Shown here: piece after piece, positions 1-22,886 of the stretch | How the letters are laid out: every line of letters starts with the position of its first letter | Numbering within the stretch: position 1 is the first letter of the stretch | Assembly (NCBI GenBank): GCA_003554345.1 | Contig: PWGE01000009.1 | Coordinates: 1 to 25,715, forward strand | Length of the DNA stretch: 25,715 nucleotides | Direction: 5' to 3' | Source of the DNA: Candidatus Sumerlaeota bacterium | GTDB lineage: Bacteria; Sumerlaeota; T1SED10-198M | The notes under the pieces: model-generated | Database searches by the model: none | What the model saw: the letters and a program-made list of their open reading frames with translations, nothing else | Told to the model about the DNA's origin: nothing | Made by a program: the position numbers and the translations under genes

Positions 1-830
1 AATTCGCCGTTTGTGATTTCTGCTGCTTCTTGAAGTTGTAGGAAGTACTTCTGATCTGTTCTTTCTCGAGGGGGGAAAATGGATACTGAATCAATCTGTT
101 CCTTGAATATTATGGGAAAAATTGCCACATCATGCTCTTCTGCAAAGAACGCAGCCTCCAGAGGTTCGTATTGACCAAGATTTTGTTCACCATCGGTAAG
201 GAGAATAATATTTTTTGTTATTTCATCGTGAAGATTGGCAGGCAACAATTCTTCCAGATGTAGATAATGTTGTTGCACTATGATAATAGCATAATGTAAT
301 GCATCACCGATTGCTGTTCCCTGTTCGGCGGGTCCAGCAACTTCGACAGTATCTATTACCTGTTTAAGGTGAGTAATGTCGGAAGACAGGGGTGAGTTGA
401 GATGAGCAAAGGCAGCAAAGGTGATCAGTCCTACATCTCCCTGCCCGGCATGTTCTAAGTACTGTTGCAATGCTTTTCTGGCAGCATTCCACCGTGTGGT
501 GTGTGTGTTCATGTAATACACCGTTTCTTTCATACTTCCTGATCTATCAAGGAGTAACAGGGAAATAGAGGGGGGTGTGGGACTCGGTTTCCTTCTTTGC
601 TCACTTTGAGGTCGAAGTAAGACTCCTGTAAAAAGAGCAAGACTCAAGCTGTAGCACAAGAAAGGAAGCCAGAGTTTATATTGACGCCCCTTTTGTTTTA
701 AAGGTTTTCCCTGCATGATATGAGGCCATTTTATAGAGGTGAAGCCACGTTTCTTGAAGCCAGTATACAGATAAATGGTCAGGGAAAGAAATCCGAGGCT
801 GATAAGGAGAGGAAGTGGTTCTGTTATCAT
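1..830 (-). CDS. VWA (von Willebrand A) domain membrane protein, BatA-like; 3' end runs off the window edge
   Basis: Not in the ORF track; translated by hand from ATG at 830 (ATGA overlap with the stop of the upstream gene): MITEPLPLLISLGFLSLTIYLY...LLRPQ...LLLLDRSGSM...GTAIGDAL...IILLTDGEQN. It has the MIDAS motif DxSxS..T..D and an N-terminal TM segment, and lies downstream of moxR/DUF58. Confidence 0.9.
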   Translation of the reverse strand, partial: MITEPLPLLISLGFLSLTIYLYTGFKKRGFTSIKWPHIMQGKPLKQKGRQYKLWLPFLCYSLSLALFTGVLLRPQSEQRRKPSPTPPSISLLLLDRSGSMKETVYYMNTHTTRWNAARKALQQYLEHAGQGDVGLITFAAFAHLNSPLSSDITHLKQVIDTVEVAGPAEQGTAIGDALHYAIIIVQQHYLHLEELLPANLHDEITKNIILLTDGEQNLGQYEPLEAAFFAEEHDVAIFPIIFKEQIDSVSIFPPRERTDQKYFLQLQEAAEITNGE

Positions 831-1849
831 CTATGGACCCTGCCTTGAAATTCCCGGGAATAATAGCGGATAATTTTTTCCAGACGGTATAAAAGTGACT
901 CCTCATCTCCCTGTGGCACCGAAACCGGCGCATATTTCATAGTTTGAGCCCGCGATAAAAGTTTTATGATGAATTTTTTGTCTTCCTCTCGTAGAGGAAT
1001 AGTGAGGTGGTTATTTTTTATTATTTCTTCTATGGTCATTATTTGCAGGTTAATACTATGAGTTTGGTAGAGGAACTGTTTTATTGCCTGGATGAGTTTT
1101 GTATAAAAGAGTCGATTATCAACTTCAAAAAGTCTTTCTCTGCTTATTTCACTTAATGTGGTGAGCGGATATTCGGGAAGTGAAGAATGGGTGCCTTTTT
1201 GTTTGCAATATAAGAAGATAATAACGGTGCCTATGAGTCCGGTTATAGTGACAAAAAAGACGTAAAAAATTGGTCTTTGATAGAAAACCGGTGTGGAAGG
1301 TCTCATGATGTCGGGAGAAGGAGGAGAGTGTGGCGTTTGTGAAGAAGCTGATAATGGTTCCACCTGTACTGAAACAGAACAGAGAGAAAAGGAGTGTTGA
1401 CGGGCAGGAAGGTCAATTGCTGTGAAGTATGCCAGGGCATCTGATAAAGTAATAGTTCCACTTTGCAACGGTTGGAGTACTACATGGTATCCCTGTACAT
1501 TGGCTTTTTTAGATACAGAGGGTAAAGGGGAAAATGATTGTACATATAACTCGGGAAGAAAGAGGTGAGGACGTAAAAAAAGCTCATATTGGGTGTCATC
1601 TGTCTTTTGAGAAGCGACTAAAACGATCTCCCAGTTTTGAGATAAATGAATGGTATCCTCTTTATAAGCAATCCATAATGAAGGTGTTTGATGGTTATTT
1701 TCTATTTGCACATGATGCCATTTATTGTAGTGTTCATTAAGATAGCTTTGTGGCTCACCGGCCATGAGGAGCCATGTTCCAGGTCCACCTCCTGTAATGA
1801 CCATTATTACGATGAAAAGAATGGATGGGACAATACACTGGAAACTCAT
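827..1849 (-). CDS. Bat/MoxR-locus membrane protein (N-terminal hydrophobic signal, exported beta-rich domain, Pro-rich linker, TM helix, cytoplasmic tail); BatD/DUF4381-like
   Basis: 340-aa ORF with ATGA overlaps at both ends. TM segment IFYVFFVTITGLIGTVIIFLY; C-terminal 'FYTKLIQAIKQFL...MTIEEI...KYA' resembles the protein that usually sits between DUF58 and batA. Confidence 0.65.
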   Translation of the reverse strand: MSFQCIVPSILFIVIMVITGGGPGTWLLMAGEPQSYLNEHYNKWHHVQIENNHQTPSLWIAYKEDTIHLSQNWEIVLVASQKTDDTQYELFLRPHLFLPELYVQSFSPLPSVSKKANVQGYHVVLQPLQSGTITLSDALAYFTAIDLPARQHSFSLCSVSVQVEPLSASSQTPHSPPSPDIMRPSTPVFYQRPIFYVFFVTITGLIGTVIIFLYCKQKGTHSSLPEYPLTTLSEISRERLFEVDNRLFYTKLIQAIKQFLYQTHSINLQIMTIEEIIKNNHLTIPLREEDKKFIIKLLSRAQTMKYAPVSVPQGDEESLLYRLEKIIRYYSREFQGRVHR

Positions 1850-2724
1850 CTGACTGATCTTTTCTTTCTTTTTCTTAATAGGTGTAAGAGGGAAAGGAGA
1901 TAATTTTGGCGACTTGAAATAGAGATGAAATCGCCCCTGTTTTTTTGAAAAAGACGGCGAACCATTTTTTCGTGTTCCTCCAGATTTTCACCAATCTTTT
2001 GCCGGATCTTTTTTCGACTGAAATCCATCCAAACCCTCTTTTTGGTTTCCGGATCCTGGAATGGAAGGTATCCCAGGGGAGGAATCTCTTTTTCCCATTG
2101 ATCATACAACATGATACCGATGAGACTATTGCGGGCAGATAAAGAAGAAATTCCTTTATCAAAGTCTGAACTGAAAAAATCTGAAAGAAGAAAAATAATA
2201 TTATGACGGGTACGAAGATGCTGATAAAAATCACAGGCGGCTTGAATATTGGTTGTTGATGCAGAGGAGCGGGCGGTCAATATCTCCTCGGCAATTCTGG
2301 AGACAGGATAGCCGGTTTTTCTGGGTGGCAAATATGTCTGTACGTGGTCACTGAATAAAATCAATGCGATTCGATTATTATCATATAAAGCGGAAAATGA
2401 AAGTAAAGCACATATTTCAGCGACTCTCTCCCGCACAAGCCGTGCAGGATTAAAACTCATCGAAGGACTGATATCGACAAGAAAAAAAACATTTTGTCGA
2501 TGTTCTTCCTGGAAGAGCTTTACATGAGGTGTGCCCAGCCGGGCGGTTACGTTCCAGTCTATATGGCGAATATCGTCTCCATGTTGGAAGGGACGCACTT
2601 CGCTGAATTCTAACCCTTCTCCTTTAAAAGCAGAAGAGTAGATTCCGTGAAAAAGATGTTGAGCTTTCCAGGAAGAGGAGATCCGTAAGCGCTTGATTTT
2701 TTTCTTCAGCGCTTCGTTGCTCAT
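1846..2724 (-). CDS. DUF58 family protein (MoxR-associated, VWA-like)
   Basis: Motifs GxGLEFSEVRPFQHGDDIRHIDWNVTAR, FLVDISPSM and IFLLSDF; 1-nt overlap with the moxR stop. Confidence 0.93.
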   Translation of the reverse strand: MSNEALKKKIKRLRISSSWKAQHLFHGIYSSAFKGEGLEFSEVRPFQHGDDIRHIDWNVTARLGTPHVKLFQEEHRQNVFFLVDISPSMSFNPARLVRERVAEICALLSFSALYDNNRIALILFSDHVQTYLPPRKTGYPVSRIAEEILTARSSASTTNIQAACDFYQHLRTRHNIIFLLSDFFSSDFDKGISSLSARNSLIGIMLYDQWEKEIPPLGYLPFQDPETKKRVWMDFSRKKIRQKIGENLEEHEKMVRRLFQKNRGDFISISSRQNYLLSLLHLLRKRKKRSVR

Positions 2725-3740
2725 TATGGAACCTCAATCTCATTGAGAATGACATCCAGAATTTGGTCAGGTGTTATTTCATCCGCCAGTGCTTCATAAC
2801 TCATGATAATGCGGTGCCTCAGAACATCTTTAGCAACTGCTTTTATATCTTCGGGCAGAACAAAATTTCTTTGTTGAAGAAGAGCATAGCCTTTGGCAGC
2901 CAGGCATAAATAAACTGATGCTCGGGGTGAAGCGCCAAACTCAATACGTTCTTCAATTTCAGGAAGATTATATTCACCAGGTTTGCGGGTTGCTCGTACC
3001 AGTCTTATGACATAATCGCGAATTTTATCATCCACATAAATGGTATCAATCATAGATTTTAAATGGGAAAGAGCCGACCTGTTTATAATACTTTTCAGGT
3101 TCAGTGGGGGGGAAACCCTGGTCATCCGCTGGAGAATAACCTGTTCTTCCTCGCTGGTAGGGTAGGAAACCAGAACCTTCATCATGAAGCGATCAAGCTG
3201 TGCTTCAGGTAAAGGATATGTTCCTTCCTGCTCAATAGGGTTTTGAGTGGCTGCCACAAAAAAGGGGGTGGGTAAAGAATGAGTCTCTCTTCCTATACTG
3301 ACTTCTTTCTCCTGCATGGCCTGGAGAAGAGCGCTTTGTACTTTTGCCGGAGCGCGGTTGATTTCGTCAGCTAATAAAATATTTGTAAAAACAGGCCCTC
3401 TGGTAACCTCGAAACGCAATTCTTTCTGATTATACATCATGGTTCCCATGATATCTGCTGGTAAAAGGTCAGGGGTGAATTGAATTCTCTGGAAATCCAG
3501 GTTAAGAACCCGGGACAGGCACCTTACCATTAAGGTCTTGGCAATACCCGGGACCCCTTCCAGGAGGAGATGCCCTTCCGTTAATAGGGCTATGAGCAAA
3601 CGGTCGAGCATCTCTTCCTGACCGACAAGAACTCTGTGTATTTCCTGACGGGCTTGCTCTATGAGGGGGAAATATTCTTCAGAACAACGGGTATCAGAAT
3701 CTTTTTGTCTGTAAGGGGCCCTTGTATCATTGTTATTCAT
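2724..3740 (-). CDS. moxR: MoxR family AAA+ ATPase
   Basis: Walker A GVPGIAKT, RIQFTPDLLPADI, Walker B LLADEINRA, ATQNPIEQEGTYPLPEAQLDRF, GASPRA. Confidence 0.97.
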   Translation of the reverse strand: MNNNDTRAPYRQKDSDTRCSEEYFPLIEQARQEIHRVLVGQEEMLDRLLIALLTEGHLLLEGVPGIAKTLMVRCLSRVLNLDFQRIQFTPDLLPADIMGTMMYNQKELRFEVTRGPVFTNILLADEINRAPAKVQSALLQAMQEKEVSIGRETHSLPTPFFVAATQNPIEQEGTYPLPEAQLDRFMMKVLVSYPTSEEEQVILQRMTRVSPPLNLKSIINRSALSHLKSMIDTIYVDDKIRDYVIRLVRATRKPGEYNLPEIEERIEFGASPRASVYLCLAAKGYALLQQRNFVLPEDIKAVAKDVLRHRIIMSYEALADEITPDQILDVILNEIEVP

Positions 3741-5172
3741 TATCTACCACTATATATATGTTGGATCCTGCCCGGTGAACGACAAGAAGGATACGGGGTT
3801 GCTCCTGTACTTCTTCCAGAATTTGCTTCATTTCCTCAACGGTTGTTACTTCCTGTCTGTTAATTTCCATGATGATGTCTCCCTGTCGAACACCCTTTTG
3901 TTGGGCACTACTTCCTGGTTCTACCGATGTAACAACAACTCCTTCAATGTTGGGTGAAACATCCAGTTCTTCCCTTATTTCAGGTGTTAATTCCTGCAAT
4001 TCCATGCCGAGAATTCGTTCCGGGGTGACAATGCGTCCTGCTAACAGATCTTCCTGGGTGGGGCGAGCCTCTGTAGTCACTGTGTATTCTTTTTCTTCTC
4101 CATCTCTGTCAATGACGGTTATTTGCACTTCGGAACCAGGTGTGATCATGCTGATGGAATTAACCAGTTCACGGGTACTGCCGATACTTTGACCATCAAC
4201 CTCGACGACAACTTCATCTCTTGAGACCCCTGCTTTGTCTGCAGGACCATCCGGTACTACATCTGTAATGAGAACTCCTTCTTCTATATCGTAAAAGTCA
4301 CGCAGTTCATGGTCTATATCTTTTATGGTGATACCGATCCAACCACGCTGTACTTCGCCGTGCTCTATAAGATTGTTAATAACATTTTCCACGACGTTAC
4401 CGGCAATAGCATATCCTAACCCTATATGACCACCGTGTGTGGTGGAAATGATATTGTTGACTCCAACAACTTCTCCATGAATGTTGAGGAGAGGTCCGCC
4501 ACTATTACCGGGATTAATTGCGGCATCGGTCTGGATAAAATCCTGAAATTCAATACTGACTCCTCTGCCTCCACCTACGTCCTGCAGCTGTCTTCCGGTA
4601 GCACTGACAATTCCTAAACTTGCTGAATGCAGTTGACCAAAGGGATTACCCAGGGCAACAACAAAGTCACCGGGTTCTACTGTATTACTATCTCCAAACT
4701 CCAGGGGAGCCAGATCATCTGCCGGCACCTTCAGTAATGCCAGGTCGGTGTTTTCGTCGGTACCTAATATGGAGACATCACCCTTTTCATAAATGGTGCC
4801 GTCATGTAATTCAATTTCGATATCTGCTTCATCCACACCATCTATAACGTGTAAATTTGTCACAATATAACCATCAGTTGAAATGATGATTCCTGTTCCT
4901 AATGTGGTCCGGGGTTGAGGTTCAGGTCTGGGGAAACCACGAAAGAATTCTTCAAAGGGAAATCCGAAAGAGTCATCATCAGGAAAGAGCCGCCTTTGAG
5001 GGTGATCTTCAGGCTCAATCTCCCCCCTTATACATACCACCGAGGAAATGGAATCCTGAATGATATTACGAAATGTCTTGTTGGTAAGAGGAACTTCCTC
5101 TGTGCTTGTTAATGCGGGAGTTGCCAGAAAAAAAGTTGTTGCAATCACCAGAAGTATTAGTATCTTCTTCAT
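3733..5172 (-). CDS. htrA: HtrA family periplasmic serine protease/chaperone (DegP/DegQ type, two PDZ domains)
   Basis: Signal peptide; catalytic triad motifs VTNLHV, TDLALLK and QTDAAINPGNSGGPL; two PDZ repeats; strong SD (AAGGAGG) before the ATG. Confidence 0.97.
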   Translation of the reverse strand: MKKILILLVIATTFFLATPALTSTEEVPLTNKTFRNIIQDSISSVVCIRGEIEPEDHPQRRLFPDDDSFGFPFEEFFRGFPRPEPQPRTTLGTGIIISTDGYIVTNLHVIDGVDEADIEIELHDGTIYEKGDVSILGTDENTDLALLKVPADDLAPLEFGDSNTVEPGDFVVALGNPFGQLHSASLGIVSATGRQLQDVGGGRGVSIEFQDFIQTDAAINPGNSGGPLLNIHGEVVGVNNIISTTHGGHIGLGYAIAGNVVENVINNLIEHGEVQRGWIGITIKDIDHELRDFYDIEEGVLITDVVPDGPADKAGVSRDEVVVEVDGQSIGSTRELVNSISMITPGSEVQITVIDRDGEEKEYTVTTEARPTQEDLLAGRIVTPERILGMELQELTPEIREELDVSPNIEGVVVTSVEPGSSAQQKGVRQGDIIMEINRQEVTTVEEMKQILEEVQEQPRILLVVHRAGSNIYIVVDNE

Positions 5173-5208
5173 AGAAACCTCCTTATTCTATCTTTTGTCA
5201 TTAAAACA

Positions 5209-5224
5209 AGCAAGTAATGTGCCA
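5209..5224 (-). promoter_or_regulatory. sigma54 (RpoN) -24/-12 promoter for the htrA-moxR operon
   Basis: Minus strand reads TGGCAC-ATTAC-TTGCT, a full match to TGGCAC-N5-TTGCW with exactly 10 nt between GG and GC. Predicted +1 near 5198, about 26 nt before the htrA ATG. Confidence 0.8.
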
Positions 5225-15062: not shown

Positions 15063-15917
15063 CTAATGATTTGATTTGAGTTCGTCCAGTTCATACACAA
15101 AAAGAATGCCGCGCAAAAGTTCCCAGTCTTGAGGAAATTCCGGGGTGAAACCCATTTGCACAGGTTTGAGGTCATTAAAAAAATCAATCATCTGTTCATT
15201 GGTATTCAAAAGAGGAACATCTGTAATATAAACACTTGTTTCAAAAATCAGACAATCAGGCAAAGAGAAAAAGTCTGACATATTATCAGAAATATTTAAT
15301 GCATTTCGGTTGTTAAGAAAATAACCCTGTAATTTTATAGTAGCTCTCTCCTTATAAAATGAGTGGAAATGAGTTTTATTTGTGGTTTTTAATAGTTCGG
15401 GATAGTCTTCCCCAAGATAATGTCCCCACATGTCACGGCTTGTCACTACTCCACTTACATAAACATTCTCCAACCCTATTTCAGTAAGGTGTTCTTTAAT
15501 GTCATTCCATGTAAAAGGTTCTTTGTGTTTCATATAAAGAATGGCAGAAGGAGTTCTGCCGGGATCTTTTAAGCCAAAACTGAAAGCAGATTGGAGAGGG
15601 ATGTTAAAGTCTAATATGGGGTGCCGACGTTCTGTGTCACCTGATTTTAAGCGGCTATTTTCAGGGTATTGGAAAAATGGTCCTATATTTTTTTTCTCGG
15701 CAATATATCCAAAACCACCACCCCAGTGAAAATCTTCATCAGGCTTGATCTGTTTGAAGTCCATGGGAGAATCCTTGACAAGAAATTGAGGTGATCCCCA
15801 ATAATGTAAAGTATATGTTTTATCTGTTTGGAGAATATTAACGATGTCACGCCCCCATAAAAATCCTGTGCTTAACAGTGTGATAATAATTAAAGCAAGA
15901 AAATATTTCTTAAACAT
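15063..15917 (-). CDS. Hypothetical secreted protein (284 aa)
   Basis: ATG 15917 with SD GGGAGG; Sec-type signal MFKKYFLALIIITLLSTGFLWG; no recognisable domain; overlaps the radical SAM stop by 8 nt. Confidence 0.75.
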   Translation of the reverse strand: MFKKYFLALIIITLLSTGFLWGRDIVNILQTDKTYTLHYWGSPQFLVKDSPMDFKQIKPDEDFHWGGGFGYIAEKKNIGPFFQYPENSRLKSGDTERRHPILDFNIPLQSAFSFGLKDPGRTPSAILYMKHKEPFTWNDIKEHLTEIGLENVYVSGVVTSRDMWGHYLGEDYPELLKTTNKTHFHSFYKERATIKLQGYFLNNRNALNISDNMSDFFSLPDCLIFETSVYITDVPLLNTNEQMIDFFNDLKPVQMGFTPEFPQDWELLRGILFVYELDELKSNH

Positions 15918-17355
15918 GAGAAAGCCTCCCGAGGTATTCATTGATCAAACTTTTCTGAGATTTGTCGCTACTGCACCAATCTTCAAAGAAAGACAGAAGA
16001 GAGGTGGGATAATTTGACAGAAGATACTGGATAAAATAAGAACGAATAGAATCGTAATCAAAAGAAAGTGAAGATAGATGTTTTTGCTGGTTTTTGAAAA
16101 ACCGAAAAGAAGTTTTAATCTCTTTCTCTTCCAGTAAAGGTGTTTTAGCCATCGGTGTTCTGGGTTTTGGAACAAAAATACCAAACTTGATAGTTATTCG
16201 TTTTGCTTTTCCTGTCTTTTTTGAACACTTTTTCACCATGTTATTCAGTATATGTAAAAAGCGGACAGTGTTGTTATGGGTTTCCTGATTTTCACCGGGC
16301 AATCCTAACATAAAATATAATTTCACTTGCTGTAAACCCCTATAAAATGCCTTTTCTACTATACTAAATATTTTTTCATTTACAATGTTTTTATTCAGAG
16401 AAAAACGCAGGGATTCATCGCCGGTCTCAGGAGCGAGAGTAAGACTCTGTTGTCCGGAATCGACTAAAAGTCCCAGTATTTCCTCATTAATTTCATCCAG
16501 ACGGAGGGAAGAGAAAGAAACCCGATATTGATGTTTACGGGAATAATTAATGAAATCAGTAAGACCTTTCCAGGACCCAATAGCTGAAGAAATGATACCA
16601 ATATTCTTATTGTTTTGCCGGGAGAGGACTTTTTTCACGCTTTTCCAGCTGCATTGACTGAAGGGAAATTGTTGATTCCCGATAAAACAGAAGCGGCAGC
16701 GGTAAGGGCAACCCCTGGTGACTTCAATGAGAAATTTGTTTTTGAAAGTGGTGCAGGGGGTGGTGATTTGGGAATGACGGGGAATAGAGCACCCTGAAGA
16801 TTTTTTTATAATCTCTCGGTAAGGGGGGCTGCACAATATTTCTTGCAGGTTTGCAAGGCGCTCCCAACGGGTATCTCCTTTTAAAAGCGCCTGGATTAAC
16901 CTTGAACCGTACTGTTCTATGTCCCCCGGTAACAAAAAATCAAAACACCCTTTTAGAGGAGAAGGGTTTATATTAATTGCAAGCCCACCTCCAATTATAA
17001 GGGGGTCACTGTTTTTCCGTTTTCTTTTATCAATGGTGATATTCTGTCGATGAAGAAACTCTATAGCTTTAAGATATCCTGGTTCAAAAGGAATGCTGAA
17101 TGCTATTACATCAAATTCGCTGGCCTTTCTTTGATTTTCAAAAGAGTAAGGGAGGGCTTTTTCGTAAAAAAAACGCTCACAATTTATTTCCGGGAAAGAG
17201 TTAAAATATCGATATACTACCTGAAATCCAAGGTTGGACATGGCGGGCTCATAGTTATCCGGGTAGATCAGAGCAATATTGCATGGCAAACCAAAAGGTT
17301 TCTGGATAGTGCCTTTTTCCCTGGTAATAAGATAATGATGACGGGATTCTTTCAT
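15910..17355 (-). CDS. Radical SAM protein with an N-terminal B12-binding-like domain (TIGR03960/COG1032-like)
   Basis: TRGCPYRCRFC (CxxxCxxC), IALIYPDNYEPAMSNLGFQVVY, FDVIAFSIPFE, LTLAPETG, VKLYFMLGLPGE, FVPKPRTP. Confidence 0.9.
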   Translation of the reverse strand: MKESRHHYLITREKGTIQKPFGLPCNIALIYPDNYEPAMSNLGFQVVYRYFNSFPEINCERFFYEKALPYSFENQRKASEFDVIAFSIPFEPGYLKAIEFLHRQNITIDKRKRKNSDPLIIGGGLAININPSPLKGCFDFLLPGDIEQYGSRLIQALLKGDTRWERLANLQEILCSPPYREIIKKSSGCSIPRHSQITTPCTTFKNKFLIEVTRGCPYRCRFCFIGNQQFPFSQCSWKSVKKVLSRQNNKNIGIISSAIGSWKGLTDFINYSRKHQYRVSFSSLRLDEINEEILGLLVDSGQQSLTLAPETGDESLRFSLNKNIVNEKIFSIVEKAFYRGLQQVKLYFMLGLPGENQETHNNTVRFLHILNNMVKKCSKKTGKAKRITIKFGIFVPKPRTPMAKTPLLEEKEIKTSFRFFKNQQKHLSSLSFDYDSIRSYFIQYLLSNYPTSLLSFFEDWCSSDKSQKSLINEYLGRLSHV

Positions 17356-17362
17356 GCGTCTG

Positions 17363-18823
17363 CTATTTTTTCTGTCCGGGAAATGAAGAGTCAGACAGAT
17401 TTTTTACAGTCAAGATTAAAAAAAAGAATACAAGGATAATATTCAGAAGCGGTGGAATCATTCTATACCATGGTAATGCGGGCGAAAGGGCGAGATGATA
17501 CCACCAGACATCGATATATCCATTACGGATAAGCCAGAGGTGGCCTGCAAGAGCTGATTGGTCCGGCACAAATAAAGACTGGTAAAACTGATGTGGTGAA
17601 AGATTTTTATAAGATATGAGATAGTAAAGATGGTAATCCATAAAGGAGGCGATACTACCGAGAAATTGGATAAAAAAACCGCTGATTGCTGTGATAATAA
17701 AGAGGGATTTTTGTTTCAGATTTTGCAGGGGATAGAGCAGGAACGCCACTCCCAGGAGAGGCACACATAGATATATATGACGGGGGCCCCAGTCCCAGCC
17801 ACCGGCCCAGTTTTGCCAGGCACTGTAAAATACAAAATAGATGATAACGGTAGCTATAAGAAAGTAAAAGAGCGGGCAGGAAAGCTTCTTTTTTAAAACA
17901 GGCAGGGTGAAAAGAGCGGGAATAAGAACCGGGGAGTAAAGGAAAAGGCTTCGTCCTGTGGAAAAAAGGAAACCGTAAATGCTGATGAGAAGAGGAGCGG
18001 AAAAAGCGATGCCTTCTTCTTGTGCCTCATAGCCGGTAATGAAAGGATTTCCATGATGCCGGTAATTTAAGTAAAGTATGAACGAACCAAATAGAATGAT
18101 GATAAAGGTGGTGAGACTGATTTTTCTCCATTCATGCCATCCCGCTTTTTTTAAGAAAAACAATAAAAAAAGAAAGGCCCACAGTAAACTATCCTGCCGT
18201 ACCCATAAGGCGATACCGGTAAGTATACCTGTAGAAACGGCAATTTTCCAGCTTATGGGGGTAAGCATGAAATAGAAAACCATTAAAAAGAGCAAGCCGA
18301 CCGCTGGCTCACTGAAGTAAGTCCGGCTGTACGGGAAAATAAAAGAGGCGCAAAGAAAAATAACCGTCATTGTAATGCTGCGCAAATGATTTCCTGTTAA
18401 TTTTATACCGATAAGGTAAAGCACCACTCCCATAAGTCCGAAAACGATGTGATTGAATAAGGAGACCCAGTGTCTAAGCCAGAAATGGCGTAATTCGGGA
18501 GGGTGAAAACGCTGGGTATCATGTCTGTAGACGTTTAACAGGTTTTCAGAAAGCAGCGGATAGGTTGCCTGGCCGATAAGGTATAGAGGGATAGATAAAA
18601 CTGAAATGCCCGGTCCATACTGGGGATATTCCTGGCCATCCTTGCCGGTCATAGTGCCGAATCCATGAACGGGTTCGATGGCAAAAGATTGTTCTGTTAC
18701 CAGACTTTCAGTGAGACGGAATCTGATTTCATCATCTTGAGGAAAAAAATGGCCACTATGAAAAAGAAGGGAGTAGAAAAAGAGGAAAAAAAAGAGCAAA
18801 ACTGATAACCTGGTTGGAGTCAT
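17363..18823 (-). CDS. GT-C fold membrane glycosyltransferase (lipid-carrier dependent, GT39/GT83-like)
   Basis: Acidic motif QDDEIRF after TM1, YPQYGPG, YSRTYFSEP, LFSTGRSLFLYSP, WAGGWDWGPRH; many TM helices. Confidence 0.75.
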   Translation of the reverse strand: MTPTRLSVLLFFFLFFYSLLFHSGHFFPQDDEIRFRLTESLVTEQSFAIEPVHGFGTMTGKDGQEYPQYGPGISVLSIPLYLIGQATYPLLSENLLNVYRHDTQRFHPPELRHFWLRHWVSLFNHIVFGLMGVVLYLIGIKLTGNHLRSITMTVIFLCASFIFPYSRTYFSEPAVGLLFLMVFYFMLTPISWKIAVSTGILTGIALWVRQDSLLWAFLFLLFFLKKAGWHEWRKISLTTFIIILFGSFILYLNYRHHGNPFITGYEAQEEGIAFSAPLLISIYGFLFSTGRSLFLYSPVLIPALFTLPVLKKKLSCPLFYFLIATVIIYFVFYSAWQNWAGGWDWGPRHIYLCVPLLGVAFLLYPLQNLKQKSLFIITAISGFFIQFLGSIASFMDYHLYYLISYKNLSPHQFYQSLFVPDQSALAGHLWLIRNGYIDVWWYHLALSPALPWYRMIPPLLNIILVFFFLILTVKNLSDSSFPGQKK

Positions 18824-18831
18824 AAGGTGTT

Positions 18832-19965
18832 TTAATTAAAAAAGCCTGTCTGAAAGATAAGAAAATAAAAGCCAAAAATGAGACCGCCTACCACCAGAAC
18901 GTTAAAAAAGGACTGAATTAAGACTGCCAGCGTGAGCTTCTTTCGTAATAATGGGGCAAAACGGGTTTCAACCATATCCCGGATCATTTGTTCTGATACT
19001 TTTTGTACTTCGAAAGGAAGTATATTAGAAATACTTTTTTTTACGGCCATTTCGGATAAAGATGGGAGCTTGGTATCAGCAACTCTGTTAACAGATTGGT
19101 CTGCCACTTCTTCAACCAGATTGACCAGCCTGTTACTTATCTCAGGAACAACATTTTTGGTGGCTTCTTCTACTTCACTTCTGGCCTGGTGCGGTAACAT
19201 GTCTTCCAGATGGTGGCGTATTTTTTCATGGGCTAATTCCGGGATAATCATGGCAGAAGCATTTTTAACTGCTTTTTCAGTACTTTCAGCGAGGATTTCG
19301 TCCAGTTGTTCGACTATCCGCCGGTCTACCATATTTTCTATCATTGATTCTGCTACGTGTTTGACTGTTGAACGAACCAGTTCCTGCTCTTTTTTTTCAG
19401 AAAGGTTGCAAACCATATTATTAACTTCTTCATCTGCCTTTTGAGAGACAATTTTAACAATTTGTTGCAATGATTTTTCAGCAATAATACGTGTTCTTTT
19501 ATCAACGGCTTCTTGAATTGCTTCCTCGGCAATTAATTGGATGTGATTTTCTGCAGCTTCCCGCAAATAAATTTCTGCGCGTTTTTTGATGTGCTTTTCT
19601 TCCAGAATGTTATTTATCTTGGAAATAAGATCCTGCTGATCAAATGGTTTGAGAATGTAACCATCTGCGCCACCCATGTTTTGAGAATAACGTTCATACA
19701 CTTCATCTTCATCCACCAGCAACATAACAGGCAACTCAAATGTTTTTTTGTGGTTTTTGAGCATCTTACAGATTTCTTCACTGTTTTCACCGCTGAGATT
19801 GCTGTCCAGAAGAATGAGGTCGATGTCCTGAATATCAGGATGTGTGATTGTTGCCAGTCCATTTGTTGCTCCGGAGACTCTGAATCCTGCACTTGCTAAC
19901 ATTTCCTGGGTTGTTTCTACAACCGACAGGTTGTCGTCTATGAGTAGAATATGTTCAAAAGCCAT
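18832..19965 (-). CDS. Response-regulator receiver domain fused to a long helical-repeat region and a C-terminal membrane anchor
   Basis: REC motifs ILLIDD, LILLDSN (phospho-Asp) and GYILKPFD in aa 1-120; about 230 aa of amphipathic helical repeats; terminal hydrophobic segment VLVVGGLIFGFYFLIF; SD AGGAG. Confidence 0.85.
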   Translation of the reverse strand: MAFEHILLIDDNLSVVETTQEMLASAGFRVSGATNGLATITHPDIQDIDLILLDSNLSGENSEEICKMLKNHKKTFELPVMLLVDEDEVYERYSQNMGGADGYILKPFDQQDLISKINNILEEKHIKKRAEIYLREAAENHIQLIAEEAIQEAVDKRTRIIAEKSLQQIVKIVSQKADEEVNNMVCNLSEKKEQELVRSTVKHVAESMIENMVDRRIVEQLDEILAESTEKAVKNASAMIIPELAHEKIRHHLEDMLPHQARSEVEEATKNVVPEISNRLVNLVEEVADQSVNRVADTKLPSLSEMAVKKSISNILPFEVQKVSEQMIRDMVETRFAPLLRKKLTLAVLIQSFFNVLVVGGLIFGFYFLIFQTGFFN

Positions 19966-19983
19966 GGTAATTCTCCTGATTTG

Positions 19984-21342
19984 TTACCAAACCTTTTGTG
20001 GTACCCGGTTTAGTTTCTTTTTATTCAGCCTTTCTAATTCATTTACAAGATCCTGATGCAGTTCTTTGTAAATCTTGCGAACCTTCTCTTCTCCTACTTT
20101 TTGAGTTCCAATCTGATAGATTTCTGAAAGGACCTCATGTAAAGCATGGATAATATCTTCCGTGGTATTGTTGAAAGACTCGACATTATCAGGGATAAAA
20201 ATCCTTAACCGCTCATATTTATGCCACTCCAGACCTTCACTTCCAAACTTGACGATATCAATTCGGGGATATTGCCGGATTTTTTCTTTCCAGAGATTGA
20301 TATATAATAAATGATCATCATCAGATTCAATGAACTCCGGAATCTGGGCTAAGTTGCCAAAGAAAAGATTATTGAAAAGAATGCAAACCCCGACAGAAGT
20401 TTGAATATTGTACTTATCGATTGGAAACCCTGTGTTTTTTTCATTAGAATTGTTGGAAAATCCAGCTAACTGCAGTAGTTTCTTGAAAGATAATCCCTTT
20501 TCTTTTACATTTTGTTTTTTCTGTTGAGCGATCTCTTCTGGCTTGAGTGGTTTCTGAGAAGGGTCTGCATAGGCTTCTTTTTCCATTCTTTTACTGTATA
20601 AGTCAAATTCAAAGAGATTTTGGGGACGGATCAGATCCAGCTTGATAAGGTTAAACAGGGCCCGATATAATTCGTATCTACTGGCATTATGGAGTTGTAA
20701 CAGGGAGTGGACTGAAAGCTTGCCCGAAATGAGTGAAAAAACCTTCCATTCGTTTAAAGAAAGATTAATGTTGTAGAAAAAAGTACTATCAACTTCTTTG
20801 TTGGCAAATATTAAATCTTCACTGTAAATTTCGGAAAGAAACTTGACCCATTCCTGACTTCTCCGGTTTCCTTCTATTACCAGAGGTTCTACTTCTATGG
20901 AAAGAGATGGGAAAAGACCGGGGTTTAATGTGTTGAGATTGTCAAATTTAAACTCGCCATTCTTAAAGCGAAATAAATCAAGAATTTCTTCTTCCAGGTA
21001 TAACCGTATAAAACTATTCAGTTCTTTTTCTGTTACAAAGCCATTCTTAATAACGAGTTCAGCCAGTGCTTGTGTATTAATAGAGTTTTCATCCATATTG
21101 TGATCATCAAGAAGATGTTTATAAGAGTTGTAAGATAGTTTTTCCTGGTGGAAAAGAATCTCTTTTAAGGGCAAAGGTTCTTCATTAGTGGTAAGAAAAG
21201 CAATGTTACCGTTATCAAAGTACACCTTAACCTTTCCTTTTTTTTCCAGGTTAAGGTTGCAGATGCCGGTAAGTTTTGAACTGGCTATGAACTGAAATAT
21301 TTCTGTAATATCAAAGGAAGAGATGCTGCCTTCAAGTTCCAT
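19984..21342 (-). CDS. DUF4388 (PATAN-related) domain protein with a winged-helix-like segment and an unknown C-terminal domain
   Basis: LEGSISSFDITEIFQFIASSKLTG...KVYFDNGNI...GEFKF...LVIEGNRRSQEW is the DUF4388 signature, followed by 'LSLNEWKVFSLISGKLSV...LYRALFNLIKLDLI'. Confidence 0.8.
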   Translation of the reverse strand: MELEGSISSFDITEIFQFIASSKLTGICNLNLEKKGKVKVYFDNGNIAFLTTNEEPLPLKEILFHQEKLSYNSYKHLLDDHNMDENSINTQALAELVIKNGFVTEKELNSFIRLYLEEEILDLFRFKNGEFKFDNLNTLNPGLFPSLSIEVEPLVIEGNRRSQEWVKFLSEIYSEDLIFANKEVDSTFFYNINLSLNEWKVFSLISGKLSVHSLLQLHNASRYELYRALFNLIKLDLIRPQNLFEFDLYSKRMEKEAYADPSQKPLKPEEIAQQKKQNVKEKGLSFKKLLQLAGFSNNSNEKNTGFPIDKYNIQTSVGVCILFNNLFFGNLAQIPEFIESDDDHLLYINLWKEKIRQYPRIDIVKFGSEGLEWHKYERLRIFIPDNVESFNNTTEDIIHALHEVLSEIYQIGTQKVGEEKVRKIYKELHQDLVNELERLNKKKLNRVPQKVW

Positions 21343-21348
21343 AATATT

Positions 21349-22656
21349 TCACCACCATTCTAATTCAGTTAATGCTCGTTGCTGGGCTTCATGGAGAGCC
21401 TGTTCAGGAGTAAGGGTAAGATTGAGCGACTTTTCCACAGCAGAACGAATAAAAGGCCGTATATTAGCCCAGTAATGGGCTCTGGGATCGTAATTCCCCA
21501 TTTCAAATTGTGATATCACAGCCTTATAAGCCGGGAAATCCTCAACATATTCCTCAAGTTCAGGTGTTTCCAGTACTGAATACCGGACAGGGGTGTAACC
21601 GGTTTCAATAGCCCATTTGAGATTATTTTCTTTATTGGTAAGGAATTTCAGGAACTCCCAGGCGTATTCCTGGACACGGGCACTGCGGGTATCCAGAATT
21701 CCTACATTTGTGCCCTCAAATAAAGTGGCTCGCTTTTTGTTACCAGGCATGGGGTAGGCCCCCCATTCAAAACGCATGGTACCATCGTCCCGTCGTAATG
21801 CTCTTTCAATAAAAGGTATGCCTGCAGAGCTTCCATAAAACATGCTTATGCGGCCTGTGCCAAAGAGTTGGCTCAGGTATCCCCTCTCCTGGAGTGAAAC
21901 ATTTTGGTTGTGGACAAGATCCACGATAAACTCCAGGGCTTCTATTGCTTCCGGGGAATTGAGCTGGGGCTGGCCTTCTTCGTCAAGGTACTGCCCGCCA
22001 TTCTGGTAAAGATACAGGGAAAAAGTGGCTTCTACAGGTCTTATACCCAGTCCAAATTGGTCGATCCGGTTGTTACCCGTCAAGTCCCTGGTGAGTTTCC
22101 TTCCGGCTTCTAATTTGTCTTCCCATGTGGTAGGAACTTCATCTATGCCCGCTTCCTGGAAATGATCTTTATTGACAAAAAAGACATAACTGCTTTTATT
22201 AAAAGGGAGGGTATAAAGTTTATCATCCCATGAATTATTCGATATAAATATGTCTATGAAGTCATCTAAGTCTTCCTGGAATTCAGGATCTTCATCGACA
22301 AACTTTTGAAGAGGTTGAATGGCGTCAGCTTCTATAAAAAGACTTGTCCATGTTTCATACATCTGGGTGATGACGGGAGGGTTTCCTGCCTGGATAGAAG
22401 CTATGAGTTTCTGATTCAAAGATCCGTAAGCTCCCTGATAAACAGGGATGATCTCTACTTCTTCCTGTTGTTCGTTGAAATCATCAGCGATTTCCCGGAG
22501 GAGTTCACCATGATCACCAGCCATGGAATGCCAGAATTCTATGCGTATTCGGCGGCCCTCATATTCGGAAGTCATATCCCCGCATGAAAAACAGAAAATG
22601 GTAAGGACGGCACATAAAAAAGTTAAACGTATCGAAACTTTCCAGAATTTCGGCAT
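21349..22656 (-). CDS. ABC transporter extracellular solute-binding lipoprotein (family 1, sugar/glycerol-3-phosphate type)
   Basis: Lipobox ..FCFSC; IEFWHSM, YQGAYG, AGNPP, LYTLPFNKS, AWEFLKFLT, WAIETGYTPVR. Confidence 0.92.
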   Translation of the reverse strand: MPKFWKVSIRLTFLCAVLTIFCFSCGDMTSEYEGRRIRIEFWHSMAGDHGELLREIADDFNEQQEEVEIIPVYQGAYGSLNQKLIASIQAGNPPVITQMYETWTSLFIEADAIQPLQKFVDEDPEFQEDLDDFIDIFISNNSWDDKLYTLPFNKSSYVFFVNKDHFQEAGIDEVPTTWEDKLEAGRKLTRDLTGNNRIDQFGLGIRPVEATFSLYLYQNGGQYLDEEGQPQLNSPEAIEALEFIVDLVHNQNVSLQERGYLSQLFGTGRISMFYGSSAGIPFIERALRRDDGTMRFEWGAYPMPGNKKRATLFEGTNVGILDTRSARVQEYAWEFLKFLTNKENNLKWAIETGYTPVRYSVLETPELEEYVEDFPAYKAVISQFEMGNYDPRAHYWANIRPFIRSAVEKSLNLTLTPEQALHEAQQRALTELEWW

Positions 22657-22700
22657 GCCGCTAAACCACCTTTTGTGTGGAATGAATGCGTGGATAAATA

Positions 22701-22886
22701 TTAGATCTTTTCTACCTTGCCGGCTTTAAGGCAACTTGTACATATATAAGCCTTTTTGGAACGACCGGCTTTTTTAATTTTGATGTGGCGTATATTAGCT
22801 CCAAAAATCCTCTTACGCCGGTTGTTGGAGTGGCTTACATTGTTCCCGATTAATCTTTTTTTACTGCAAATTTCACAAACAGCCAT
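22701..22886 (-). CDS. rpmB: 50S ribosomal protein L28 (zinc-ribbon C+ form)
   Basis: MAVCEIC...GNNVSHSNNRRKRIFGANI...ICTSCLKAGKV; SD AAGGAG. Confidence 0.97.
   Translation of the reverse strand: MAVCEICSKKRLIGNNVSHSNNRRKRIFGANIRHIKIKKAGRSKKAYICTSCLKAGKVEKI

Follow-up and report, generated by a model that had tools for sequence, protein, structure and literature searches.

The receiver gene and its product

Here we describe a membrane-anchored receiver protein, P0001, and the PATAN protein encoded beside it, on the reverse strand of the window, by which we mean the whole 25,715-nucleotide stretch of Candidatus Sumerlaeota DNA that was analysed (contig PWGE01000009.1, assembly GCA_003554345.1). 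The P0001 gene is an open ORF (18832..19965, stop codon included) that encodes 377 aa and starts at an ATG with AGGAG 8 nt upstream. Its product consists of a receiver (REC) domain (aa 6-117; 19615..19950, reverse strand; Pfam Response_reg, PF00072, E 1.5e-16), about 220 aa of repeated Pro-capped amphipathic helices (aa 120-342; 18940..19608, reverse strand), hereafter the arm, and one C-terminal transmembrane (TM) helix (aa ~344-372; 18850..18936, reverse strand), so that the bulk of the protein is cytoplasmic. The TM helix was recognised by hydropathy, with a Kyte-Doolittle mean of up to 2.3, and is preceded by RKK and followed by 5 residues. An initial annotation of this DNA had described the architecture correctly, and it is kept in 36 aligned relatives, all of which have one TM segment at ~345-375 after basic residues. 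The Pfam scan of P0001 returned the receiver domain alone and NCBIfam matches were confined to the receiver part, neither library showing the DNA-binding or enzymatic output that had already been reported as absent, and PDB profile and Foldseek searches with P0001 likewise gave matches on the REC domain only.

The REC domain has the expected fold (Foldseek TM 0.85-0.91 to the PhoB and DivK receivers) and retains the acid pocket (D10, D11), the phospho-acceptor D54 and K106, while the Thr/Ser switch site at the end of beta4 is occupied by V84, within PVMLLVD (aa 79-85); the initial annotation had read the kept Asp and Lys and the Val in the same way. Among the 36 aligned members D10 is found in 31, D54 in 32 and K106 in 34; N35, A38 and P107 are invariant (36/36) and P43 is present in 35. 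Position 84 is Val, Ile, Phe or Leu in every member and Thr or Ser in none, and the phospho-acceptor Asp is absent from 4/36. Because Thr/Ser is missing throughout and the Asp is missing from these four members, classical phosphorylation-driven switching may not apply to the family, and given the systematic absence of Thr/Ser any coupling between phosphorylation and output must differ from the Y-T mechanism of CheY.

The description of the protein as tail-anchored holds for P0001, in which only five residues lie beyond the TM helix, but not for the family as a whole. Some members carry Pro-rich tails of 40-100 aa past this helix (P0015, encoded at L023:8537-9952, and the proteins of loci L032, L034 and L038), and these are single-pass proteins whose tail is extracytoplasmic.

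Conservation across the Sumerlaeota

Four full-length homologues with 60-82% identity to P0001 were recovered by a word-indexed search, and an exhaustive search with aa 125-377 extended the family to 21 representative clusters at E <= 1e-3, most of them proteins of 370-430 aa with the same layout. In terms of full-length relatives, this amounts to four close and ~15 distant proteins. The family belongs to the phylum Sumerlaeota (BRC1), where 54 of the 61 sampled genomes contain a match, in one copy per genome except for one fragmented genome in which the match is split over two contigs. The carriers include Ca. Sumerlaea chitinivorans (genome G004), whose protein is letter-for-letter equal to AXA36774.1. 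Two other phyla were considered and rejected, Spirochaetota because the FlaA model matched only in part, in giant proteins, and Planctomycetota because FtsZ is present and PSD1 occurs in just one of five genomes. The genome from which the window derives comprises 2.55 Mb in 454 contigs and is 88% complete, and the DNA of the window is present in metagenome runs from salt and soda lakes, with no RNA run among those containing it. A search of the ESM Atlas yielded no usable relatives of P0001, and a scan of genome contigs for related loci gave nothing but unrelated receivers.

Every single part of the P0001 system described below is of a known kind. The combination, comprising a receiver joined to a PhiPhi-x-x arm and a TM helix, its pairing with a PATAN protein and its conservation across a phylum, is undescribed in the literature searched.

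Repeats and periodicity of the helical arm

The three peptides quoted in the initial annotation lie at aa 145-157, 204-216 and 323-335, and its Pro units IIP, MLP, VVP, KLP and ILP end at P242, P258, P274, P301 and P317, giving the spacings of 16, 16, 27 and 16 residues that it had listed. These units, with P338, make up a Pro-punctuated stretch (aa 239-338; 18952..19251, reverse strand) in which a 32-aa double "LP" unit occurs twice, and the prolines are well conserved over the members (P242 in 36/36, P258 and P317 each in 34/36). Comparison of the family profile with itself showed that the repeats exceed chance: aa 237-272 matched aa 300-342 with 94% probability (P 1.4e-7), whereas the reversed control gave 6%, and the two halves of the arm, aa 125-236 and 237-342, matched each other with 90% probability, the control here giving 3.7%.

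The hydrophobic residues of aa 120-342 recur with a period of 3.95 residues, rather than 3.5 or 3.6 (power 437, compared with 51 +/- 14 for shuffled sequences), and the same period was found in the family profile. When 2370 open segments of at least 150 aa from the source genome were ranked by periodicity, P0001 came first, its best 100-aa window scoring 248 against 113 for the next protein and 106 for the 99.9th percentile. Spelled out, the pattern is PhiPhi-x-x behind a PhiPhiP cap. With such a period the arm is unlikely to be a canonical heptad coiled coil; it could be an oligomeric bundle with a wide face, or else a solenoid built from short helices. An AlphaFold2 (AF2) model of P0001 built from a 36-row alignment (mean pLDDT 76.5, pTM 0.43) placed helices at 110-236 and 259-373 after the receiver. 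It gave solely long single helices for the arm, with low confidence at aa 220-258.

Comparison with DUF445, PopZ and RomR

The best library match of the arm at the family level is DUF445 (PF04286), which did not figure in the initial annotation. DUF445 comprises predicted membrane proteins of the E. coli YjiN type, whose function is unknown, and a search of the literature returned nothing on this bacterial family. In Pfam scans of the 36 members, DUF445 matched 19 at E <= 1 (best E 9e-9), and the model covered profile positions 92-343 of 368 on the genes of the relatives, two of which reach the gathering score of 33.8 bits, one with 35.2 bits and the other with exactly 33.8 bits. A direct hhalign comparison gave a weak 16%, but it used a DUF445 alignment of only four sequences and the Pfam model is the better test. 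The likeness covers the helical region in the middle of the protein and the TM helix at its C-terminus, whereas the N-terminal TM segment of DUF445 is absent from P0001 and its place is taken by the REC domain; P0001 itself has no DUF445 match, even at E 10. From these comparisons we conclude that the arm forms an array of LP-capped helices that is DUF445-like at the family level.

It could be argued from this that P0001 is a DUF445-type housekeeping membrane protein in which the N-terminal TM part has been replaced by a degenerate pseudo-receiver that serves for docking only, with no role in signalling. The extent of the DUF445 match and the two relatives at or above the Pfam cut-off fit such a protein, as do the receiver sequences insofar as all lack the Thr/Ser and a few have lost the Asp or the Lys. 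Yet D10, D54 and K106 are each kept in 31-34 of the 36 members, and bona fide DUF445 genes stand elsewhere in the relatives' genomes, apart from the family genes. A signalling role is also favoured by two results presented below, namely that the gene is strictly paired with one for a PATAN protein of the signalling type and that the partner is predicted to contact the receiver on its active-site face, and we consider the housekeeping reading very unlikely. The arm also has a distant match in P0032, a large protein (1008 aa) in which DUF445-like sequence occurs three times (E 3.8e-16), along with a repeat region that matches Fibrinogen_BP.

The initial annotation had instead compared the arm with the C-terminal parts of PopZ and RomR. 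To make these comparisons we built an alignment of the PopZ C-domain from 25 genomes matching PF10691, and one of 120 RomR-like proteins (REC, Pro-rich linker and conserved C-terminus), many of them labelled Desulfuromonadaceae; the RomR comparison thus refers to a RomR-like family and not to Myxococcus RomR itself. In both alignments the hydrophobic periodicity is strongest at 4.0 residues. With hhalign, the family profile matched PopZ-C with 62-64% probability (P 7e-5) over 68-70 columns, against 0.6% for the reversed control, and the alignment placed P258 on the "NLP" of PopZ. The RomR-like C-terminus scored only 18% (P 1.3e-3; reversed controls 0.9-3.4%), and it aligned to aa 278-315 and not to the IIPELAHE segment that had been named. 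DUF2497 (PF10691) matched 8/36 members at E <= 1 (best E 2.5e-5), and P0001 itself had no match at E up to 10. What stands of the proposed resemblance is therefore a common PhiPhi-x-x pattern with a period of ~4 residues behind a PhiPhiP cap; homology to RomR-C is not supported by these values, and neither is membership of PopZ/DUF2497. A relationship between the arm and PopZ-C is possible. A search by sequence for a solved structure of the PopZ C-domain found none. Positions 30-75 of the DUF2497 model, its second half with the LP-capped helix, were also matched at the ends of large proteins (500-990 aa) of Pseudomonadota (e.g. G099:C147, G143:C132 and G139:C10), so that the LP-capped helix motif is not confined to PopZ.

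In PopZ, AlphaFold 3 models supported by mutagenesis present the H3H4 part, which carries the PhiPhi-x-x pattern, as a trimeric coiled coil, and H3H4 forms trimers and filaments (PMC12999525). Since the arm of P0001 has the pattern of this trimer-forming helix, oligomerisation of the arm is a fair inference. The initial annotation went further and proposed a tail-anchored, self-assembling pole organiser, kin to RomR-C and PopZ, whose helical array polymerises at the cell pole under the control of an atypical receiver. The shared period, the profile match to PopZ-C well above its control, the DUF2497 matches and the behaviour of H3H4 all speak for this proposal, as do the small-GTPase and Roadblock genes found near the receiver gene in relatives (see below). 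Like RomR, which belongs to the Myxococcus xanthus polarity module with RomX, MglA and MglB, P0001 has an N-terminal REC followed by a non-enzymatic scaffold part and C-terminal helices with a PhiPhiP cap and PhiPhi-x-x periodicity; the genes of its relatives adjoin Ras-like GTPase and Roadblock genes. Unlike P0001, however, RomR is soluble and has a Pro-rich disordered linker, whereas the corresponding region of the membrane-anchored P0001 contains 2.7% Pro, is predicted to be helical and would form 220 aa of helix rather than a Pro-rich linker with a short C-terminal motif. PopZ resembles P0001 in its LP-capped helix with a 4-residue hydrophobic period, but it is a soluble protein of Alphaproteobacteria in which a single domain of this kind follows a disordered acidic stretch, and its prolines are spaced 11 residues apart where those of P0001 are spaced 16 apart. 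DUF445 is the better library match, P0001 lacks a DUF2497 match of its own, the RomR-like comparison is low and falls on another segment than the one proposed, and no RomR-like, PopZ-like, MglA or MglB protein was found in the source genome at its 88% completeness. A pole organiser of this kind is consequently unlikely.

A related and broader possibility is that the arm is an expanded, membrane-tethered form of the same oligomerising helix that makes up the PopZ core, gives RomR its C-terminal targeting motif and fills DUF445 proteins as well. We regard this as quite unlikely, but if it were true, one ancient "LP-capped, 4-residue-period" motif would underlie bacterial polar scaffolds that look unrelated, and the Sumerlaeota protein would be a receiver-controlled, membrane-bound polymer positioning a PATAN and small-GTPase module. 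On a practical level, the simple signature of a PhiPhi-x-x pattern, a 4-residue period and a PhiPhiP cap, which links PopZ-C, RomR-C-like motifs and DUF445, may be used to find further scaffold proteins.

The PATAN partner and its gene neighbourhood

The gene 18 nt upstream of P0001 (19984..21342, reverse strand) encodes P0002, a protein of 452 aa with a PATAN/DUF4388 domain (aa 4-165; Pfam PF14332, E 9.4e-19), a winged helix (aa 166-244) and a helical C-terminal domain (aa 312-452). The AF2 model of P0002 (pLDDT 82.5, pTM 0.72) shows the same division, with PATAN at aa 1-165. The winged helix gave weak matches to TrmB in 9/23 members and to MarR in 6/23, and a structural match with Z 8.1 over 76 residues, the fold being a common one. 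The PATAN gene lies directly upstream of the receiver gene in 19/19 relatives' loci that have sequence on that side, and in all loci PATAN and REC are separate ORFs.

Clustering of the flanking ORFs showed that in about 9 of 20 loci the pair ends a longer series of genes, arranged as TPR, Roadblock (348 aa), Roadblock (117 aa), Ras/Arf/Gtr1-like GTPase (390 aa), Roadblock (162 aa), PATAN and REC-TM. A link to cell polarity through a small GTPase, for which the initial annotation had suggested looking for mglA and mglB, thus holds in part: the PATAN gene always precedes the receiver gene and a GTPase/Roadblock cluster is found at these loci, but neither an MglA-like GTPase nor a Roadblock protein was found in the source genome at 88% completeness, and the GTPase link is accordingly not universal. 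The source genome at this completeness also gave no match to CheW, FliG or FtsZ_C and showed no RomR-like C-terminal motif and no PopZ. Genes for type IV pilus twitching motility have been reported in all Sumerlaeota MAGs studied (PMC8092238), and the source genome has 19 matches to T2SSE ATPases; no pilus genes lie beside the PATAN/REC-TM pair in the 20 loci examined. Five of the T2SSE matches (PilB/PilT-type) stand in a row on one contig of the source genome (C69:2-6104).

In the lineage of the window the neighbours are different, with an SBP gene upstream of the pair and genes for a GT-C glycosyltransferase and a B12-type radical SAM enzyme downstream. The whole run (15063-22886, reverse strand) reads SBP, PATAN, REC-TM, GT-C, B12-type radical SAM and an orphan of 292 aa, the genes lying 6-18 nt apart, and the portion from SBP to radical SAM is kept in three contigs of close homologues (60-82% identity) whose G+C content ranges from 28% to 40%. 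This arrangement raises the question of whether REC-TM and PATAN in this lineage regulate envelope biogenesis by controlling the co-transcribed glycosyltransferase and radical SAM enzyme. The preserved order and short gaps in three further contigs are consistent with such control, as is a PMT_2 glycosyltransferase gene that is convergent beside the pair in three Sumerlaea-type loci. Against it, PATAN and REC-TM are the only neighbours conserved phylum-wide, GT-C, radical SAM and SBP genes not being found beside the pair in the other loci, and PATAN proteins are not known to control glycosylation; we hold a dedicated envelope regulator to be decidedly unlikely. The PMT_2 gene (GT-C type; 569 aa; L031:6838-8544, forward strand, and also L034 and L041, all in Sumerlaea-type genomes), which converges on the REC-TM gene, is reminiscent of the GT-C gene that follows the pair in the window.

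Predicted complex and proposed function

P0002 and aa 1-343 of P0001 were both entered as alignments, and their complex was modelled in three runs, which reached ipSAE values of 0.64, 0.63 and 0.67, against 0.00 for the best of three controls. The ipSAE mark is reached by 58/80 solved complexes and 2/110 mismatched pairs, counts which are only rough here because the alignments were our own. At least 80% of contacts are common to the runs, and the pLDDT of the partner is 62. On the REC side the modelled interface involves residues 11-44, 56-74, 85-88 and 107-110, including N35, A38 and P43, and on the partner side residues 180-270 and 359-393, in the winged helix and the C-terminal helices, including the invariant W199, G207 and D362. 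In the model, the interface therefore consists of the rim of the REC phosphorylation site and of N35, A38 and P43, which are specific to the family. The prediction supports, but does not prove, binding of the PATAN protein to the active-site face of the receiver.

Our preferred reading, which we hold to be somewhat better than an even bet, is that P0001 is a membrane-tethered receiver scaffold that forms a two-protein unit with the PATAN protein encoded upstream. Together the two probably make up a so far unstudied switch with a link to the control of pili or of cell polarity. In this scheme, the C-terminal helix would keep the receiver at the membrane's inner face, on the end of a long and probably oligomeric arm that serves as a stalk or platform, and the winged-helix and C-terminal helical domains of the partner would clamp its phosphorylation face, as the complex model predicts. 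Whether PATAN stays at the membrane or is freed to act on its targets would then depend on phosphorylation of D54, or on mere occupancy of the REC face. The targets would likely be the pilus motor or, in many relatives, the neighbouring set of small GTPase and Roadblock proteins.

The closest known systems are the PatA-type regulators of cyanobacteria (PixE, PixG and PatA). Their PATAN domain serves as the output, has PilB1 and PilC as binding partners and is frequently encoded close to mglA/mglB (10.1101/2021.06.11.447907; PMC4316618), binding of the pilus motor being known for PixE (10.1101/2021.06.11.447907). Because PATAN elsewhere binds PilB/PilC and adjoins MglA/MglB, we liken the Sumerlaeota pair to a PatA-type (PATAN-REC) regulator that would act as two chains, anchored to the membrane. 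Both have PATAN followed by REC in the same order, PATAN as the likely output module and a link to type IV pilus machinery and an MglA/MglB neighbourhood. They differ in that PatA-type regulators are one polypeptide, whereas in the Sumerlaeota there are two, with a predicted contact between the chains, and in that the Sumerlaeota PATAN chain also contains a winged helix and a helical domain, and the REC chain a 220-aa helical arm and a membrane anchor.

To our knowledge, PATAN, Roadblock and MglA modules are widespread but almost untested outside Myxococcus, Thermus and cyanobacteria, and we know of no studied cell biology in the Sumerlaeota. At stake is how such modules connect to the membrane and to two-component signalling, a question for which the family provides a defined two-gene unit found across the phylum, whose predicted interface, on the phosphorylation face of the receiver, can be tested.

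Other genes at the loci

Two further gene arrangements were noted. In Ca. Sumerlaea chitinivorans and two relatives, the PATAN gene is adjoined by a gene for a 1149-aa fusion of Hsp70, TPR and Ser/Thr protein kinase (L031:11399-14845, forward strand, and loci L034 and L041). In the window itself, positions 1-5224 of the reverse strand hold an overlapping Bat-like operon encoding an HtrA protease, a MoxR AAA+ ATPase, DUF58 and VWA proteins, the domains of which were confirmed by Pfam.
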